57,783 nucleotides of DNA from Candidatus Micrarchaeota archaeon (GTDB taxonomy: Archaea; Micrarchaeota; Micrarchaeia; Anstonellales; Anstonellaceae). Below the pieces are notes generated by a model. It saw nothing but the letters and a program-made list of their open reading frames with translations. It was not told where the DNA came from and ran no database searches. Position numbers and translations under genes: made by a program. The stretch covers positions 15,966-73,748 of the forward strand of contig JAOAJL010000004.1 of the NCBI GenBank assembly GCA_026414185.1. The letters run 5' to 3'. Shown piece by piece: positions 11,063 to 54,027 of this stretch (positions within the stretch are counted from its first letter, which is position 1; each line of letters starts with the position of its first letter).

Positions 11063-12346
11063 TTATTTGCTGTGCCCGCTGGATTTCAGAAGCTCGGCAG
11101 CGCGCTTTGAAGATATGTTTTTTTCATCAACCATAATCTTGGCAATCTTTTCTATCTGCGCACCTTTTGCGCCTGCCGCGATTGCTATGTTTTTGGCGTG
11201 AAGCTCCATGTGCCCGCGCTGTATGCCCTCTGTGGAAAGGGCGCGCAGCGCCGCGAAATTCTGCGCAAGCCCGACGCTTGCCATTATGCAGGCAAGCTCC
11301 CCTGCGGACTTGACCCCGAGTATTGCGAGGGCAACTTGCGCAGTGGGAAGGGAGCGGATTGCCCCGCCGACAGTCCCCACTGCAAGAGGAAGCTCAATTG
11401 AGCCTTGCAAGTCGCCGTTTGGAAGCTTTTTGTAATTTGTCAGGGGCAGGTACCTGCCGCTTATCGCCGCATAGGCATGCGCCCCAGCTTCCACTGCCCT
11501 CCAGTCGTTGCCTGTTGCCAGCGCCACGGCGTCTATGCCGTTCATTATGCCCTTGTTGTGCGTGGCGCAGCGGAATATGTCCGAGTGGGCGAATGCCCAT
11601 GCATCAAGCACGCCTTCAACCGCATCCTCCCCTATTGTCTCCTTTTTCCAGACGGCAGTGGCTCTGGCAAGCCTGCTTGCCGCAAGATTTGAGATTATCC
11701 TCAGGCGCACCTTCCCGCCGGCAAGCTGGCGGAGCTTCGGAGCCACCCCCTCAAGTATGGTATTGACGGTGTTTGCGCCCATGGAGTCACGCACGTCTAT
11801 GTGGAACTCCGCTATCACCATCCCGCCGCGGGGCGTTTCAATGGCTCTTGCGCAAAAGCCCCTCAGCCCGCCTCCGTAGGATGCGATGTTCTCCGCGAAC
11901 GGGGCGGCTGCTGAAAGTATCTCTGTCTTGGCACAATTCAGCTCCTCAGCCGCCTTTTTTGCATCTCCCAGCCCGACAAGCTGTATCTGCCCTATCATAA
12001 TCGGCGGGTCTGCGGATGCGAAAAATCCGCCGCTGTCCCTGCAAAGCTTCGCGGCGTTGCTTGCAGCGGCTACGACAGAGGGCTCCTCTATGCTCATGGG
12101 CACGAGAACCTCCCTGCCGTTGACTATGAAATTGGTGGCAATGGCAAAGGGAAGGGGATGGAAGCCAAGCACGTTCTCTATGATGCGGTTTGCTGTGTCA
12201 AACGCAAGCGGCGAATCCGAGGCAAGCACCTGCGCCTGCTCTTTTGAAAGGGAGCAGAACTTTTTCACAAGCCTTATCTTCTCTTTGCGCCCAAGCTTGT
12301 AAAAGCCGGACAGCGCTGATGATTTTTTCAGAGCCATCAGAATCAC
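11063..12346 (-). CDS. mvaA: Hydroxymethylglutaryl-CoA reductase, class II
   Basis: IENVLG, EEPSVVAA, DSMGANTVN, THNKGIMNG, GHMELHAKN; alternative ATG at 12337. Confidence 0.93.
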   Translation of the reverse strand: MILMALKKSSALSGFYKLGRKEKIRLVKKFCSLSKEQAQVLASDSPLAFDTANRIIENVLGFHPLPFAIATNFIVNGREVLVPMSIEEPSVVAAASNAAKLCRDSGGFFASADPPIMIGQIQLVGLGDAKKAAEELNCAKTEILSAAAPFAENIASYGGGLRGFCARAIETPRGGMVIAEFHIDVRDSMGANTVNTILEGVAPKLRQLAGGKVRLRIISNLAASRLARATAVWKKETIGEDAVEGVLDAWAFAHSDIFRCATHNKGIMNGIDAVALATGNDWRAVEAGAHAYAAISGRYLPLTNYKKLPNGDLQGSIELPLAVGTVGGAIRSLPTAQVALAILGVKSAGELACIMASVGLAQNFAALRALSTEGIQRGHMELHAKNIAIAAGAKGAQIEKIAKIMVDEKNISSKRAAELLKSSGHSK

Positions 12347-13206
12347 TTTCCAGCCGCCTCAATCAGGCAGATGAGCTTGTAGGCAAGCCGAGCGGCAAGG
12401 AAATCGGAGATGCGGTTGCCTGGAATGGGGCAAAGCTCCACCACGTCAAAGCCAACGATTTTCTTTCTTGCCGCAACTTCCGAAAGCAGCTCCGCAGCCT
12501 GCTTGTAGCGCAATCCACCCGGCTCAGGGGTGCCGACAGCAGGGCATTCTGAGGGGTCAAAGGCGTCCAGGTCTACCGTGACATACACCTCGCCTTTCAG
12601 CCTCTTCACAACCGCCGAGGCTTCAAATTCAGATCCGAAAACATCAAGCCCGCCCTTTCTTATCAGCTGCGCCTCCTCCTCCGAGTAGCTTCTCACCCCA
12701 ACCGAAACCGCGTGGAAGGCTTCGCGGCAGCGGCGCATCACGCAGGCGTGGTTGAACTTTGTCCCTTCATACTCGTCCCGCATGTCCGCGTGGGCATCAA
12801 GGTGCAGCACTGAGATGCCTTTTGCGCGGCTGGCAAATGCGTTGAACGCGCCTATTGAGACTGAGTGCTCGCCCCCAAGCAGGATTGGGATTCTCTTTTC
12901 TCTCAGCACCGCCTCCACCGCCTCTTTCACATAGGCGCAGTTTTTCTCAGGCGAGCCCCGATGGACCTCAAGCTCCCCGAAGGTGTAGATTCCGCAGCCT
13001 GAAAAGTCTCGCTGCAGCTGGATGTCGTATGTTTCCACCTGCCTGCTTGCCTCTATTATCGCCTGCGGTCCGCTGCGCATGCCCACTCCGTAGCTTGCGG
13101 TTGAGTCATATGGGCAGGAGAGGACGACGTATTTGCTTTTCGCATAGTCATTTGGCACTCCCAGAAACGTCATCGGGACTCCTGCGTGGAATATTTCAAG
13201 AGCCAT
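12343..13206 (-). CDS. speB: Agmatinase (ureohydrolase family)
   Basis: GGEHS, DAHAD, DLDAFDP, GTPEPGG, DVVE. Confidence 0.9.
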   Translation of the reverse strand: MALEIFHAGVPMTFLGVPNDYAKSKYVVLSCPYDSTASYGVGMRSGPQAIIEASRQVETYDIQLQRDFSGCGIYTFGELEVHRGSPEKNCAYVKEAVEAVLREKRIPILLGGEHSVSIGAFNAFASRAKGISVLHLDAHADMRDEYEGTKFNHACVMRRCREAFHAVSVGVRSYSEEEAQLIRKGGLDVFGSEFEASAVVKRLKGEVYVTVDLDAFDPSECPAVGTPEPGGLRYKQAAELLSEVAARKKIVGFDVVELCPIPGNRISDFLAARLAYKLICLIEAAGK

Positions 13207-13276
13207 GCTACTACCCACACCGAAGAGGAGAGTGGGTGAATACACCTTTTAAAACTACCCGCCGCCAAATCCACAC

Positions 13277-14173: not shown

Positions 14174-15055
14174 GTGAGGTGGATGGAAGCGATAGTTTCA
14201 ACAGACTTGCCCCTGAAGCGCTTTTCAAAAGGCAAGGTGCGCGAAACCTATGAGTTGCCCGATGGCAACCTGCTGATGGTTGCGACCGATCGCCTTTCTG
14301 CCTTTGACGTCGTTTTTTCCGAGGGCATACCCTACAAGGGAATCGTGCTTACAGAGCTGTCTCTTTTCTGGTTTGAAAAGCTCAGTGGCATTGTGGAAAA
14401 CCACCTCATCTCCTCAAGGGTGCCTGCTGGCTTGCCGGATTACCTCAAAAGAAGGAGCATGGTGGTCAAAAAGGCAAAGCCCATCAAGCTTGAGTGCGTG
14501 GTGCGCGGATACCTGGCTGGAAGCGGGCTGAAGGAATACAACGAGAAAGGGACTGTGTGCGGCATACCCCTTCCGCCCGGCTTGAAAAACTCAAGCAAGC
14601 TTCCGCAGCCCCTTTTTACCCCAAGCACCAAGGCGGATGTCGGGCACGACATAAACGTGGATGAGAAAGAGGGGCAGAGGATAGTGGGCAAGGAAACCTA
14701 CGAGCGCATCAAGGAGCTTTCCCTCAGGATATACACCACTGCCGCGGAGTATGCCGCAAAGCGCGGCGTGATACTGGCAGACACGAAGTTTGAATTCGGG
14801 CTTTATGACGGCAAGATAATCCTGATTGACGAGGTGCTCACGCCGGACTCCTCAAGATACTGGCCTGCGGACAGATACGAGGTTGGAAAAAATCAGCCCT
14901 CCTACGACAAGCAGTATGTCCGCGACTACCTTGAGGGGATTGGCTGGGACAAAAAGCCGCCAGCCCCGCGCCTTCCGCCCGAGGTGGTGGCAAAGACAAC
15001 CGAGAAATACATTGAGGCTTATGAGAAAATCACGGGCAAGAAGTTCAAAAGGTAA
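14174..15055 (+). CDS. purC: SAICAR synthetase
   Basis: [59 protein letters not shown]. Confidence 0.96.
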
Positions 15056-48981: not shown

Positions 48982-50760
48982 ATGGGTTGGAAGAAGGGTG
49001 CGGCGGCACTGCTTGTCATAGCCGTCGCTTTTTGCTCACTTCTGCATGCCGCATGCCCGACAGCCAGCCGGCAGATATACCTTGCCGCGGTGACTGGTGA
49101 GGAAAGCGGGGGCGTTTTCAGGCTTGAGGTGGAAATACGTCCGGGAAGCGGAACCATCTACACTGCCATAAGCCCAAAGACAGGCTTTCTGACGCAGGAG
49201 TCAGAGCAGGCGGCTGTGGAGTATGCCTTCAAAAGCACAGGGGCGCAGTTGGCGGAGTGCGATGTCCTTTTCCGGCTGGCAGGCCCTTTTGGGGAGAATG
49301 TCGTTGACGGGCCTTCTGCTGGCGGGGCTATGGCGGTTGCTCTTCGGGCGGCGATTCTCAACAGGAGCATAAGGCAGGATGTTGTCATTACCGGCACCAT
49401 CTCCCCAGGGGGCAAGATAGGTCCTGTCGGCGGAATAATGGAAAAAGCCCTCGGAGCCGCAGAGGCGGGTGCGCGCTACTTCCTTGCGCCCAAGCTGCAG
49501 CTTCATGAAGCCCTCCTGATTTCCTCGCTTGCAAAAACAAAGGAATTTTATGCGATAGAAGTTGGGGACATATCGGAGGCTGAGGAGGTCCTCTTTTCGG
49601 ACTACTCGCAGAACTTCAGCTCCAGGTTTGTGCCGCAGTCATCCCCACTGCCAAAAAACCTTCCCCCGATAAGCCAGGATGCAGCTCTTGCGCGCTTTGG
49701 CAAAATTTCCAAGAAAGTGGTTGACGAGCTTGAAGCAAAGAAAAAGGCGCTTTTTCCCGAAGGCGGACAAAGCCCGCAGCTTTCGCAGATGCGCCAGTAT
49801 TTTGATGATGAGATAGCAAAGTACAGGAAGCTGCTTGGGCTTGGCTACTACTTCACAGCCGCCAACTCGGCATTTCTCCTCTCCATAGACGCGGAATATG
49901 TCAAGATGGGGGATGCGGCTGGGCTTGATTTTGCAGGAAGCGTTGAGGAGGTGGGCAGGTGCATAGCAAGCCTCAAGCCGCCCAAAAAAACCCACGAGAA
50001 TTTCCACTGGGCTGTTGGGTCGGACTTGCGCAGGATATGGGCGCAAAAGAGGATGAATGAGAGCCTTGAAAGGCAGGATGCGCAGGGGCACTACACGACA
50101 ATCCGCGACCTTCTTTATTCTTATAGCTGGTGCGGCATCTCGCGCGAGCTTGCCTCAGAGGCGGATTCCATAGGGGGCAGGCAAGCCGACGAATCCGTCC
50201 TTGTGCAGCTTGCCTCAAAGAAGATTTCCGAGGCTGAGGAGAGGCTGGCGCATGCACCAAAGCTTGACTACGACGCCCTGTGGCATCTTGAAGCTGCGCT
50301 TGCGGCAAACCAAAGCGGCAGATACGGCGCGGCGATATACGATGCGACCTATGCGAAGGCGATGCAGGAGGCGTCCTCTGAAAGCAACGTAAGCGCCTCT
50401 GCGCAGAGGCTTGTCTTGGCAGACAGGAAAAGCCTGTGGGGCAAGATATACCAGGGGCAAGGCGTCTTCCTTTATTATCAGGCAAAGGAAAGCGGGTTTG
50501 ATTTGACTGATGCCTACCGCGTGCTGAAATATGCCTCTGAGCTTGACAGGTCCGCCCAGGAGATGGACAGGGAGCTTGCGGCGCAGCTTGTGCAGAAGGA
50601 GGCGGCGGCTGTCGCTGAGGCTGGCGGGCAAAGCCCAGCTGCGAAAGAATATGTTCCTATTGAGCAGGACTACCCGCTTCTTCTCTTTCTTACATTTTCA
50701 GTTGTGGCTTTCGCACTTGGGGTGGGCTATCGTCTTGCTTTAAGGATGAAAAAGGGCTGA
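48982..50760 (+). CDS. Secreted, membrane-anchored Lon-like Ser-Lys protease without ATPase (COG1750-like)
   Basis: Signal peptide; VDGPSAGGAM catalytic Ser motif; TGTISPGGKIGPVGGIMEK; C-terminal TM plus basic tail. Confidence 0.85.
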   Translation: MGWKKGAAALLVIAVAFCSLLHAACPTASRQIYLAAVTGEESGGVFRLEVEIRPGSGTIYTAISPKTGFLTQESEQAAVEYAFKSTGAQLAECDVLFRLAGPFGENVVDGPSAGGAMAVALRAAILNRSIRQDVVITGTISPGGKIGPVGGIMEKALGAAEAGARYFLAPKLQLHEALLISSLAKTKEFYAIEVGDISEAEEVLFSDYSQNFSSRFVPQSSPLPKNLPPISQDAALARFGKISKKVVDELEAKKKALFPEGGQSPQLSQMRQYFDDEIAKYRKLLGLGYYFTAANSAFLLSIDAEYVKMGDAAGLDFAGSVEEVGRCIASLKPPKKTHENFHWAVGSDLRRIWAQKRMNESLERQDAQGHYTTIRDLLYSYSWCGISRELASEADSIGGRQADESVLVQLASKKISEAEERLAHAPKLDYDALWHLEAALAANQSGRYGAAIYDATYAKAMQEASSESNVSASAQRLVLADRKSLWGKIYQGQGVFLYYQAKESGFDLTDAYRVLKYASELDRSAQEMDRELAAQLVQKEAAAVAEAGGQSPAAKEYVPIEQDYPLLLFLTFSVVAFALGVGYRLALRMKKG

Positions 50761-50770
50761 GGGGGATTTT

Positions 50771-52009
50771 ATGGAACCAATCATAAGGCGCGCAAAAATG
50801 CTTGCGCAGGAGCATCCGTCTGTCAGCAAGGTGGCGCTTGCCTATTCAGGCGGGCTTGACTCTGCGGTGATAGGCAAGCTTCTTTTGGAAGCCGGCTTTG
50901 AGGTGCTTCCGGTTGTCATCAACCTGGGGCAGCAGTCGGACCTTGGCAGAGTGGAGAAGAACGCAAAGGCGATTTTTGGGCAGTGCCGCCTTTATGACGC
51001 GCGGGAGAATTTCGTGATGAATGTGGGCAGGGGAATAAAGGCTTCCTGCCGGGCGTTGGGGGGCGTGAATGCGGGCGGGCTTTCCCGACCTTCAATGGCA
51101 TACGCACTTGCCCAAGTTGCAAGGGAAAGCGGCTGCCAGGCGATAGCCCACGGCGCATCCGGAATGGGAAACGACCATCTGACCATGGAAAACTCCCTGC
51201 GCGTGCTTGCGCCCGAAATGAGAATAATCGCGCCGGTGCGAGATTTGGACTTGAGAAGGGACGAGGCGCTGTCGTTTGCGGCTGAAAAAAAGCTTCCGAC
51301 GAATTTGAAGCGCGCCCTCTCCTTTTCCGCAGATGAGAACCTTTGGTGCAGGACCCTGCGGCAAGGGGCAGCCCTTGAAATCTCCGCGCCCCTGCCGGAA
51401 GAGGCTTACAAATGGACCGTTTCGCCTCAAAAGGCGCCCGAGAAGGGCGCTGAGGTGGAGGTTGAATTCCTCAACGGCTTGCCTGTCCGAGCCAAGATTG
51501 GCGGCAAAGAGGAGAAGGGACTACTTTCCATCATAGAGGCTCTGAACGAAGTTGGCGGAAAGCACGGGATTGGCAGACTTGATTTTGTCACAGACAGGGT
51601 GGTGGGGCTGAAAGTGCATGAGGCGTATGAATGCCCTGCCGCGCTTATCCTGCTTGCCGCTCATGAGGAGCTTGAGGCGCTTGTGCTCACCACCAGGGAG
51701 CTTGAAGCAAAGCACTACATTGATGCGCTGTGGAACAGGCTTGTTTATGACGGCGGATGGTATACGCGGCTGCGAAGGGCGCTTGATGCGTTCATAGATG
51801 AAACGCAGAGGGCGGTTGACGGCAGCGTTGAGCTCTCGCTTTACAAGGGAAGCATAAGGGTGAAAGGAAGGAAAAGCAGGCACGCGCTTTATGACGCGCG
51901 GCTTTCCTCGCGCGACAGCAGTGGCGTGTTCACGCAGAAGGAAAGCAGAAGCTTTGCCAAGCTTTACTGCCTGCAAGACGTAATCGCGTATATGATGGAG
52001 CTTGATTAG
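50771..52009 (+). CDS. argG: Argininosuccinate synthase family protein (divergent)
   Basis: LAYSGGLDS PP-loop, HGASGMGND, SADENLW, YECPAA, LYKGS. Confidence 0.85.
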   Translation: MEPIIRRAKMLAQEHPSVSKVALAYSGGLDSAVIGKLLLEAGFEVLPVVINLGQQSDLGRVEKNAKAIFGQCRLYDARENFVMNVGRGIKASCRALGGVNAGGLSRPSMAYALAQVARESGCQAIAHGASGMGNDHLTMENSLRVLAPEMRIIAPVRDLDLRRDEALSFAAEKKLPTNLKRALSFSADENLWCRTLRQGAALEISAPLPEEAYKWTVSPQKAPEKGAEVEVEFLNGLPVRAKIGGKEEKGLLSIIEALNEVGGKHGIGRLDFVTDRVVGLKVHEAYECPAALILLAAHEELEALVLTTRELEAKHYIDALWNRLVYDGGWYTRLRRALDAFIDETQRAVDGSVELSLYKGSIRVKGRKSRHALYDARLSSRDSSGVFTQKESRSFAKLYCLQDVIAYMMELD

Positions 52010-52092
52010 CGCGCGGGAGAAGTGCTTTAAAGCCTTCTGTCAGTCAATAGCGCAACCTGTTTTGCTGGCAGACGCAAAGAGAGGTGGTTGGC

Positions 52093-52764
52093 ATGGATGG
52101 GAAGCACAAAAGCAGGAATGTCCATATCGGAAGGGAGACGGAAGAGAAAGGCAGGGGGAAGGTGCCAAAGAAAGAGGAAACGGCTGGCAATGTGCATGAG
52201 ATGGAAATTCAGAGGGCGTATCAGAGGCTTGTGGAGGGCAACAAGCGCTTTGTTGAAGGAAAGCTCGCGGCGCAGGATGTCATAAGGCAAAGGCAGGAAA
52301 CTGCCAGCGGGCAGAAGCCCTATGCGGCATTCGCCTACTGCGCTGACTCGCGCGTGCCTATTGAGCTGATATTTGATGCCGGCATCGGAGAGCTTTTTGG
52401 CGCTGGCAGGATGGCAGGCAACATAGTGGACAGCGGGGTTGCAGGCTCGTTTGAGTATGCCTATGGGCACCTTGGCACCAGGCTTCTTGTCGTGCTCGGG
52501 CACAGCTCGTGCGGTGCTGTGAATGCCGCCTGCAAGACTGAAAAGGCGGATGGCAATGTTGACTACATAGTCAAGAGGCTTCAGCCCGCAGTAAAGGCTG
52601 GGGAGAAGGACCCGGCCAGAGTGGTCAGGGAGAATGTCAAGCTCCAGATTGAGCAGCTTCGCAGCCTAAGCCCCCTTCTTGCCTCTGCTGAGAAAGAGGG
52701 GAAGCTTAAGATAGTTGGCGCAATCTACGACATTGAAAGCGGAAAAGTGGATTTCCTTGCCTGA
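52093..52764 (+). CDS. Beta-class carbonic anhydrase
   Basis: CADSRVP and HSSCGA zinc ligands; GAIYDIESGKV; N-terminal extent uncertain. Confidence 0.92.
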   Translation: MDGKHKSRNVHIGRETEEKGRGKVPKKEETAGNVHEMEIQRAYQRLVEGNKRFVEGKLAAQDVIRQRQETASGQKPYAAFAYCADSRVPIELIFDAGIGELFGAGRMAGNIVDSGVAGSFEYAYGHLGTRLLVVLGHSSCGAVNAACKTEKADGNVDYIVKRLQPAVKAGEKDPARVVRENVKLQIEQLRSLSPLLASAEKEGKLKIVGAIYDIESGKVDFLA

Positions 52765-52812: not shown

Positions 52813-54027
52813 GTGGTTCGTTTGGAAGAGCACACGAAACTCAAATACGAGCTCAAAAAGCAGCTTAACGCGCTACGCGAGATGAAGGGGAGCGGAACCG
52901 AGCTTATAAGCGTATACATACCTGCGGGGCAGGCAATCTCCGAAACGTCAAACAAACTGCGCGAGGAGGCTGGGCAGGCGTCAAACATCAAAAGCAAAAG
53001 CACGCGCAAGAATGTGACCGATGCCCTTGAGAGAATAATACACCACTTAAAAACCTACGGCAACAAGGCTCCGGACTCCGGGGTCGCGATATTCTGCGGC
53101 AACATAAGCGACAATCCTGCCAAGACGGATATTGCGCTTTTCACCGTCTTTCCGCCGGAGCCGATAACGGTTTCTCTTTACAGGTGCGACTCGCGCTTTT
53201 TCCTTGAGCCCCTTGAGCGCCAGCTTGCTGTTGGCGAAAGCTACGGCATTGTTGTGATGGATGGCAGGGAAGCCACCCTTGCCGAGCTGCGCGGCACGCA
53301 GGTCCGCATTTTGCACCGCCTCAACTCCACCGCCCATGCGAAAATAAGGAAGGGCGGCCAGTCTGCGCGCAGATACGAGCGCCTCATTGAGGAGTCAATT
53401 GAGCTTTACTACAAGCGCATAGGCGAGGCGATGGACCGCTATTTCCTCAACAACGTCAAGGGAGTGGTGGTCGGCGGTCCAGGACCTGCGAAGGACAACT
53501 TTGTCAAGATGTCCCCCTTCAATTACCAGATAAAGCTTCTTGGGGTGGTGGATACCGGCTATACGGATGAATACGGTGTGCGGGAGGTAATTGCGAAGGC
53601 GGAGGAGATTCTCGCCAAGCAGGAGGCTGTGGTGGAAAAACAGCTTGTTGAAAAATTCATCAAGGAAGTGGTATCCGGGGGCTTGGCAACTTATGGGGAG
53701 GCTGAGGTGCGCAAGGCGATTGAAAGCCGCCAGGCATCAAAGCTCCTCATTTCAGAGGGGCTCACCTACAAGAGGGCAAAGCTTGTGGACACCACGACAG
53801 GCGAGGTGCAATGGGTGACTGCCAAAAGCCCCCTTGAGCTTGAAGAGAGGATTAAGGCTGTGGGGGGAACGGTAAGGGTGGAGGAGCAAAAGCCCCTCAT
53901 TGACGATTTGATTGACCTTGCGGCACAGCGCGGGGTGGAGGTGGCTGTCATTTCCCCGGACACTGCAGAGGGGGCGCAGTTTTTGGGAAGCTTCTATGGC
54001 ATAGGGGCTTTCCTGCGCTACAAGTAG
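52813..54027 (+). CDS. prf1: Peptide chain release factor aRF1
   Basis: SNIKS, YRCDSRF, KGGQSARRY, GIGAFLRY. Confidence 0.96.
   Translation: MVRLEEHTKLKYELKKQLNALREMKGSGTELISVYIPAGQAISETSNKLREEAGQASNIKSKSTRKNVTDALERIIHHLKTYGNKAPDSGVAIFCGNISDNPAKTDIALFTVFPPEPITVSLYRCDSRFFLEPLERQLAVGESYGIVVMDGREATLAELRGTQVRILHRLNSTAHAKIRKGGQSARRYERLIEESIELYYKRIGEAMDRYFLNNVKGVVVGGPGPAKDNFVKMSPFNYQIKLLGVVDTGYTDEYGVREVIAKAEEILAKQEAVVEKQLVEKFIKEVVSGGLATYGEAEVRKAIESRQASKLLISEGLTYKRAKLVDTTTGEVQWVTAKSPLELEERIKAVGGTVRVEEQKPLIDDLIDLAAQRGVEVAVISPDTAEGAQFLGSFYGIGAFLRYK

Follow-up and report, generated by a model that had tools for sequence, protein, structure and literature searches.

The gene argG encodes argininosuccinate synthase (ArgG, EC 6.3.4.5). 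Canonical ArgGs, such as those of Thermus, Mycobacterium and an archaeal subtype marked by the motif NLWGRSIE, share a two-domain fold with a C-terminal oligomerisation arm. A DNA stretch of 57,783 nucleotides (nt) from a Candidatus Micrarchaeota archaeon (the whole of it is called the window below) carries at 50771-52009 on the forward strand an open reading frame (ORF) for a paralogue of ArgG of 412 amino acids (aa) (P0001), which is a direct descendant of the NLWGRSIE subtype. The paralogue has the canonical fold and arm, together with the PP-loop, Arg95, Gly117, Asn123, Asp124, Arg157, Ser180, and Asp182. It differs from canonical ArgG in lacking Y87, K121, R127, E191, and E270, in a short Gly-rich Tyr87 loop, in having arginines 197, 333, 377, and 381 (numbers of the paralogue itself), and in being basic. 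Judged by sequence comparison, it is very probably not the housekeeping ArgG of its genome and very probably makes no argininosuccinate from citrulline, and public annotation very probably mislabels a conserved, repurposed paralogue.

The active site of the family has been mapped in human ASS1 (PMC13289927). There, citrulline is contacted by Tyr87, Asn123, Arg127, Ser189, Glu191, Glu270, and Tyr282, aspartate by Thr119, Asn123, and Asp124, and ATP by the P-loop, Arg95, Gly117, Thr119, Asp124, Ser180, and Asp182. According to the same study, the active sites are compound, as arm residues 375-378 (including Met377) complete the site of the neighbouring subunit.

Another use of the ArgG fold is represented by the nitrile synthetase ArtA (PDB 9leh/9lei; Zeng et al., ACS Catal 2025, as cited in PMC13060819). 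In the citing account, ArtA is a bacterial natural-product enzyme of the PP-loop type, which works outside the arginine pathway and directs adenylation to another oxygen (carboxylate or amide). Because ArtA, on that account, carries another adenylation chemistry, the ArgG scaffold can be redirected. However, ArtA matches the paralogue at only 24% identity (82 bits, E = 3e-22, residues 20-353), well below the canonical ArgG matches, and the paralogue retains the aspartate subsite and has nothing that points to nitrile formation. NCBI also keeps a curated ArgG-like family, NF038212 ('argininosuccinate synthase-related protein', argG_rel), set apart from true ArgG; the paralogue scores 169.5 bits against its cut-off of 425 and so is not a member.

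Duplicates kept beside an active copy after losing their substrate-binding residues are known from HisZ/HisG, from Ctu2/Ncs2 with Ctu1/Ncs6, and from the trypanosomatid 'prozymes'. As a rule, such duplicates show degeneration of the nucleotide or catalytic motif. Unlike them, the paralogue strictly keeps its PP-loop and catalytic core. Our literature search found no paper on this ArgG paralogue.

The start codon lies 10 nt past the stop of the preceding gene, and the position of the ORF is exact; its start is taken as correct because the 412-aa homologues align with the window protein from residue 1. Both ArgG domains were recognised by Pfam (PF00764, 5.9e-34; PF20979, 6.6e-66). An AlphaFold2 model built with 74 homologues as input reached a mean predicted local distance difference test score of 94.5, and Foldseek aligned it with the ArgG structures 1vl2, 4u7j, 2nz2, and 1kh1 at template modelling scores of 0.85-0.9, C-terminal arm included. 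The N-terminal HUP domain, the C-terminal synthetase domain, and the oligomerisation helix are all present, while identity to solved ArgGs in the structural alignment is 30-36% (36% to 4u7j). Among the NCBIfam ArgG models, the paralogue exceeds the cut-offs of TIGR00032 (328.6 bits, cut-off 268.2) and NF001770 (348.2 bits, cut-off 334) and falls under that of NF010392 (348.1 bits, cut-off 512). The protein belongs to the PP-loop superfamily (N-type ATP pyrophosphatases), as shown by SGGLDS at residues 26-31 in a Rossmann-like HUP domain. It gave weak cross-matches to the models of ThiI, MnmA, LarE, and QueC; Foldseek also matched its model to LarE, GMP synthetase, and TtuA, and for P0001 ESM Atlas returned nothing but generic PP-loop families, with scores of at most 0.80.

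The genome bearing the paralogue, that of a tiny symbiotic archaeon (0.96 megabases (Mb), 87% complete), has a second argG on contig C12, which scores 493 bits to TIGR00032 and carries every canonical motif (AYSGGLDTS, YLLGTALARP, HGATGKGNDQVRFE, MHISHEAG, and VENRFVGIKSRGLYE). It also encodes argH, argF adjoining carB, purA (503 bits), purB, purC (14174-15055 of the window), and pyrG. In the window, argH, argF, and canonical argG were looked for and none was found; all are located on other contigs. A preliminary description of this DNA had remarked on the absence of argH and argF nearby and had proposed looking for a canonical argG and argH elsewhere in the genome, where both indeed exist. 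Because canonical argG, argH, argF, and carB lie elsewhere in the genome, the ornithine-to-arginine route is complete without the paralogue. An arginase-family protein, probably agmatinase (PF00491, 1.4e-66), is encoded in the window at 12343-13245 (-), 38 kilobases from the paralogue and adjoining the genes of an HMG-CoA reductase and a UbiA prenyltransferase.

A survey of 81 genomes of the order found the paralogue in 18, in 17 of which canonical ArgG is also encoded; the sole exception, G003, is a genome of 75% completeness. Canonical ArgG alone is encoded in about 19 genomes, and neither protein in 44. In three genomes of the same genus (G032, G062, and G078), the paralogue is absent, the flanking genes are in place, and canonical ArgG is present. 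The paralogue is accessory, and in the samples searched it never replaces ArgG.

The preliminary description had drawn attention to a preserved PP-loop and GND beside several altered motifs. The motifs that it quoted are all where it placed them, and the segments that carry the comparison are given below, all on the forward strand, with the residues of the paralogue and canonical positions in human ASS1 numbering.

50840..50866 (+), PP-loop AYSGGLDSA (residues 24-32); the ATP-pyrophosphatase motif is kept, with T17 changed to S.
51053..51091 (+), Tyr87 loop in remodelled form, ALGGVNAGGLSRP (residues 95-107), without either canonical tyrosine and with a one-residue deletion.
51149..51190 (+), HGASGMGNDHLTME (residues 127-140); G117, N123, and D124 are kept, with T119S, K121M, Q125H, R127T, and F128M.
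51320..51367 (+), SFSADENLWCRTLRQG (residues 184-199); S180 and D182 are kept, and E191 is replaced by R197, followed by the family-specific Q198.
51572..51631 (+), GRLDFVTDRVVGLKVHEAYE (residues 268-287), including FVTDR and KVHEAYE; E270T and S278V, with Y282 kept.
51752..51778 (+), GGWYTRLRR (residues 328-336); canonical Pro329 is replaced by R333.
51875..51916 (+), C-terminal arm SRHALYDARLSSRD (residues 369-382), with the family-specific R377 and R381.

Seventeen diagnostic positions (T17, Y87, T119, K121, N123, D124, Q125, R127, S180, S189, E191, E270, R272, S278, R279, Y282, and P329) were compared between canonical ArgGs (60 in the alignment; those compared include 17 from Micrarchaeota) and 87 members of the paralogue clade. 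Canonical ArgGs read TYTKNDQRSSEERSRYP nearly without exception, whereas the paralogue clade departs systematically at 10 or more of the 17 positions. Its members read, in order, S, hydrophobic, S, non-Lys, N, D, H/Q, R or T/V/I/N, S, x, R, x, K, x, R/H, Y, and R, and the window protein reads S V S M N D H T S T R T R V H Y R. As the signature is near-uniform in the canonical set and systematically different in the 87 clade members, the motif differences are not due to chance. None of the 60 canonical sequences departs from Y87, K121, R127, E191, and E270, for which the window protein has Y87V, K121M, R127T, E191R, and E270T. The preliminary description had named the same variants in true ArgGs as an observation that would speak against it; none was seen among the canonical ArgGs compared.

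Within the family, S26, G27, and G28 of the PP-loop never vary, and conservation reaches at least 90% at L29, D30, and S31. The Tyr87 loop has the shortened, Gly-rich motif G-x-x-N-x-G-G-[IL]-S-R-P, compared with Y-E-G-x-Y-P-L-S-T-A-L-S-R-P in canonical ArgG; Arg95 is retained as R106, and column entropy at Y87 is 2.72 bits against 0 in canonical ArgG. The E191 position is R in 83 of 87 paralogues and E in all canonical sequences, while the E270 position is T in the window protein and D, E, V, or others in its relatives. The frequency of R at the P329 position is 1.00 in the paralogue, against 0.98 for P in canonical ArgG, and R335 is 98% conserved. In the arm, R377 is found in 86 and R381 in 83 of the 87 paralogues; R381 aligns with human ASS1 Met377, where the canonical arm has M or Y. 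The conserved residues specific to the paralogue are R197, K276, R333, R335, R377, R381, and R393. Its R272 position is K (K276) in 84 of 87 members, whereas the window protein keeps R and is unusual inside its own family at T274, R276, and H283, where the consensus is [DE]-D-K and K-[IV]-R-E.

Part of the list in the preliminary description is ordinary variation between subtypes, as canonical ArgGs can have either VENR or VEDR and either KSRG or KSRE. The changes of greatest diagnostic value were missing from it, namely E191 to R197, P329 to R333, M/Y377 to R381, and the one-residue deletion and Gly-rich remodelling of the Tyr87 loop.

Sorted by ligand, the changes fall unevenly. The ATP-site residues (PP-loop, Arg95, Gly117, Ser180, and Asp182) are present and near-invariant in the family, and the aspartate site is represented in the window protein by S130 (T119S), N134, D135, and R163 (Arg157). 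At the citrulline site, the protein has V99, T138, T195, R197, T274, Y286, and M132 (for Lys121), so that only Tyr282 is kept and S189 has become T. In the paralogue family, the columns of the ATP site have a mean entropy of 0.52 bits, those of the aspartate site 0.39, and those of the citrulline site 1.60, with a protein mean of 1.43; the corresponding values in canonical ArgG are 0.24, 0.15, and 0.02 bits. These site entropies indicate that the ATP and aspartate subsites are under selection and that the citrulline head-group pocket is drifting. The contacts to the amino-acid head of citrulline (Y87, K121, R127, S189, and E270) are lost and drifting, and the PP-loop, Arg95, Arg157, Ser180, Asp182, N123, D124, and position 119 (as T119S) are kept.

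The effect of such substitutions is documented by a deep mutational scan of human ASS1 in a yeast assay, with growth expressed relative to wild type (PMC13289927). K121M (0.04), K121T (0.02), and E191K (0.02, pathogenic in ClinVar) are null alleles, and T119S (0.26, hypomorphic), T17S (0.74), and Y87F/C/S (0.24-0.30) are milder; in vitro, R127Q/L/W, E191Q, and E270Q are inactive. If these human data are transferable, the window protein, with K121M, E191R, R127T, E270T, and Y87V, would be unable to work as an argininosuccinate synthase.

The family is basic, with a median isoelectric point of 9.05, a net charge of +7, and 31 Arg, compared with isoelectric points of 5.7-7.1 and net charges of -6 to 0 in canonical ArgGs. 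A 48-sequence family alignment (A2) has 43 invariant columns and 55 more that are at least 90% conserved, including residues unconserved in canonical ArgG. Between the same genome pairs, the paralogue shows a nonsynonymous divergence (dN) 1.8-3.2 times as high as the canonical copy does, and its ratio of dN to synonymous divergence (dS) is at most 0.13-0.29, with dS saturated. The low dN/dS indicates that the paralogue is selected rather than decaying.

The closest relatives form about 75 protein clusters (clustered at 90% identity) of intact full-length ORFs with 44-68% identity to the window protein; those with a taxon name are all from Micrarchaeota, and the named ones are labelled 'argininosuccinate synthase'. 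Ordinary ArgGs rank below this block, at about 40% identity. A family profile run against 1.84 billion representative proteins matched only seven representatives above 400 bits, followed by canonical ArgG. The family is small, with members found in genomes of the Micrarchaeota class alone. In a maximum-likelihood tree, the paralogue clade (99% support in the Shimodaira-Hasegawa-like approximate likelihood ratio test) is sister to the single-copy canonical ArgG, here called type A, of other Micrarchaeota (genus g13). The canonical ArgG of the same genome falls in a separate type-B clade with 100% support and is about 33% identical to the paralogue. A previous study reported Micrarchaeota ArgG and ArgH as laterally acquired (PMC8407392).

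Among 251 genomes sampled from the phylum, four from three other families (G107, G228, G210, and G233) have tandem pairs, made up of a canonical type-A argG and, 0-2 nt downstream of it, a copy that resembles the paralogue. These pairs sit behind the same Lon-like protease gene as the paralogue of the window. The downstream copies of G107 and G228 have Y87L, K121I, E191K, R272K, and S278I/V, that of G210 has T17S and Y87H only, and in each of the four pairs the downstream gene encodes the more basic protein, with a difference of 4-8 charges. Such copies represent early stages in the divergence of the paralogue. Because the paralogue lies directly downstream of canonical argG in these other families, its origin was likely a tandem duplication of type-A argG in Micrarchaeota, followed by stepwise remodelling of the downstream copy. 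Where the paralogue occurs in the order of the window, no canonical type-A copy adjoins it and the genome has a type-B argG at another locus; in this lineage the type-A tandem partner is gone, and the separate type-B argG does the job. The Arg127 position was further lost in the genus of the window.

Repurposing, as proposed in the preliminary description, is borne out: a canonical argG is present, the variants are absent from canonical ArgGs, their human equivalents are null, and the family is conserved and selected. The outcome may be a ligase with a new substrate or a repurposed, possibly non-catalytic, subunit. We see about an even chance that the paralogue is an active ATP-dependent ligase whose substrate has changed and is probably anionic. 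Such an enzyme would still bind ATP, would most likely adenylate a carbonyl or carboxyl oxygen, and would then couple the activated compound to the amino group of aspartate or of a similar amine. With Glu191 and Glu270 gone, arginines at the positions of Glu191, Pro329, and Met377, and a basic surface, the acceptor would be expected to lack a free alpha-amino group and to be anionic or larger than citrulline, or to reach the mouth of the pocket. By alignment to human ASS1, the arm with R377 and R381 would reach the active-site mouth of the neighbouring subunit.

Several points weigh against an active ligase with a changed substrate. The paralogue scores above two ArgG equivalog cut-offs (TIGR00032 and NF001770); the human mutational data would have to carry over to an archaeal protein with which human ASS1 shares about 30% identity; and the apparent spatial clustering of the new arginines comes from alignment to published descriptions of human ASS1. 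The K121, R127, S189, and E270 positions vary within the family, which is odd for a single defined ligand and suits a non-catalytic role too. The paralogue occurs without canonical ArgG only in G003 and is coupled to it in basal lineages, which suits a partner subunit. Finally, the neighbouring genes (Lon-like protease, beta-carbonic anhydrase, and aRF1) are conserved backbone genes and give no metabolic hint.

Some of these points lend an appreciable, though well below even, probability to the paralogue being a regulatory or scaffolding partner in hetero-tetramers with canonical ArgG, which would bind ATP without turning over citrulline and insert its Arg-bearing arm into the canonical site. 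The 0-2 nt spacing of the tandem pairs is consistent with translational coupling, the basic paralogue and its acidic tandem partner have complementary charges, and the drift at former citrulline contacts and the rarity of genomes lacking canonical ArgG agree with such a role, as does an arm with family-specific R377 and R381 in an enzyme with compound active sites (PMC13289927). However, the PP-loop, Arg95, Gly117, Ser180, Asp182, Arg157, and Asn123/Asp124 are near-invariant. In the pseudo-PP-loop partners Ctu2/Ncs2, by comparison, the motif decays. New near-invariant residues (R197, K276, and R333) lie in the paralogue's own pocket, the paralogue outlived its type-A partner, which was replaced by an unlinked and distant type-B ArgG, and canonical ArgG works alone in the genus-mates G032, G062, and G078. 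It is improbable that the paralogue is a second argininosuccinate synthase, binding citrulline through compensating residues. The scores above both cut-offs, the full ArgG fold, the kept ureido and aspartate contacts (Ser180, Asn123, and Asp124), and the occurrence only in genomes with an arginine pathway would fit; yet five residues invariant in canonical ArgGs are all changed, human ASS1 keeps no more than 4% of its wild-type function with K121M, K121T, or E191K, the citrulline-site positions are unconserved even within the family, and an isozyme would be redundant beside the fully canonical ArgG of the same 1-Mb genome. That the gene is a functionless duplicate decaying toward loss is scarcely credible: three genomes of the genus lack it and its amino-acid sequence diverges 2-3 times as fast as that of the canonical copy, but its ORFs are intact and full-length in about 75 clusters, dN/dS is at most about 0.3 (dS saturated), the conserved columns include paralogue-specific ones, and the AlphaFold2 model is of high confidence.

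A more specific form of the proposal of an active ligase, which we regard as unlikely, is that the paralogue uses ATP and aspartate on an acidic macromolecular or phosphorylated acceptor (e.g., a residue or the C-terminal carboxylate of a LysW-type carrier) or on a small anionic ureido or carboxy compound. The genome contains an orphan LysW-like zinc-ribbon ORF of 50 aa that ends in ...VKEE (G000:C33:30749-30898(-), equivalent to L068:1501-1653), and this ORF is conserved in each of the 12 genomes searched from the genus. A tblastn search of the genome (G000) with LysX, LysY, LysZ, LysJ, and LysK of a relative gave no match, and TIGR02144 (LysX) matched CarB only, as cross-matches. The link to a LysW carrier is attractive electrostatically and is unsupported, since these partner genes were not found and the LysW-like ORF also occurs in genus-mates without the paralogue. 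Two other aspartate-dependent assignments were rejected, adenylosuccinate synthetase because purA, purB, and purC are present and a UMP-to-CMP route because pyrG is present.

A complete LysW lysine/arginine cluster was observed in another genome of the same family (G035:C12:21000-34846, L069), with homocitrate synthase, HacA/B, HICDH, three LysW, two LysX, LysY, LysZ, LysJ, and LysK. An ornithine carbamoyltransferase gene lies between LysX and the second LysW, and the third LysW has the tail SEEGTE, not EDWGE.

The window also encodes FtsZ, an S-layer protein, and a Cdc48-type ATPase; together with aRF1 and the source names of the closest homologues (Micrarchaeota, Anstonellaceae), these genes assign it to a Micrarchaeota genome. 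The genes closest to the paralogue are as follows.

48982-50760 (+), Lon-like membrane protease (592 aa), with an N-terminal signal/transmembrane segment, a Lon-type S16 domain (GPSAGG), and a C-terminal transmembrane anchor.
52084-52764 (+), beta-carbonic anhydrase, directly downstream of the paralogue.
52813-54027, aRF1 (404 aa).

About 400 residues of the Lon-like protein belong to no known family. Its gene is core in the order (73 of 81 genomes) and marks the place where the argG tandem ancestrally lay. Coupling of the paralogue to this protease was rejected, as the gene is core and its product, with signal and transmembrane segments around the GPSAGG domain, looks extracytoplasmic. In several loci of family f1 and in one f12 genome (L028), the beta-carbonic anhydrase gene comes immediately after the paralogue. 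This adjacency is a weak clue, as the gene was not seen beside the tandem pairs and stays in place, as does that of aRF1, in a genome without the paralogue.

Genus-mates without the paralogue have in that position, behind the Lon-like gene, an ORF of 419-447 aa (L053:6788-8047(-), L055:6734-7993(-), and L054:6793-8136(-)). Its N-terminal motif 'GCSDARD' or 'CSDSR' is reminiscent of the CxDxR of beta-carbonic anhydrase. Of the 81 genomes of the order, 10 contain the ORF, and G000 is not among them; it belongs to no Pfam family, and ESM Atlas gave nothing for the 419-aa form. It was rejected as an analogue of the paralogue, since both coexist in G071 and G038. One genus-mate aRF1 (L054:3425-6169(-), G032) is 914 aa long, with a large in-frame insertion resembling an intein with a homing-endonuclease domain.

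Many other ArgG-fold lineages with non-canonical signatures were seen among global representatives (P0122-P0266), such as a recurrent TYTANDQRSTGGTGRFP type and another of the form T-H-x-W/R-N-N...E-E-E...H, which suggests several uncharacterised ArgG-like families beyond that of the paralogue.

For annotation, the paralogue means that pathway reconstructions of DPANN archaea can count as ArgG a gene that very probably makes no argininosuccinate. Its history appears to be one of stepwise duplication, loss of the partner where a second ArgG exists, and repurposing, with intermediates surviving in living lineages; in genomes of about 1 Mb, little is retained without use. For enzymology, the paralogue is a tractable candidate, either as a ligase with a new aspartate-dependent reaction or as the first pseudo-subunit of ArgG, and a ligase acting on an acidic acceptor, if true, would represent a reaction class undescribed for the ArgG scaffold, in DPANN archaea.

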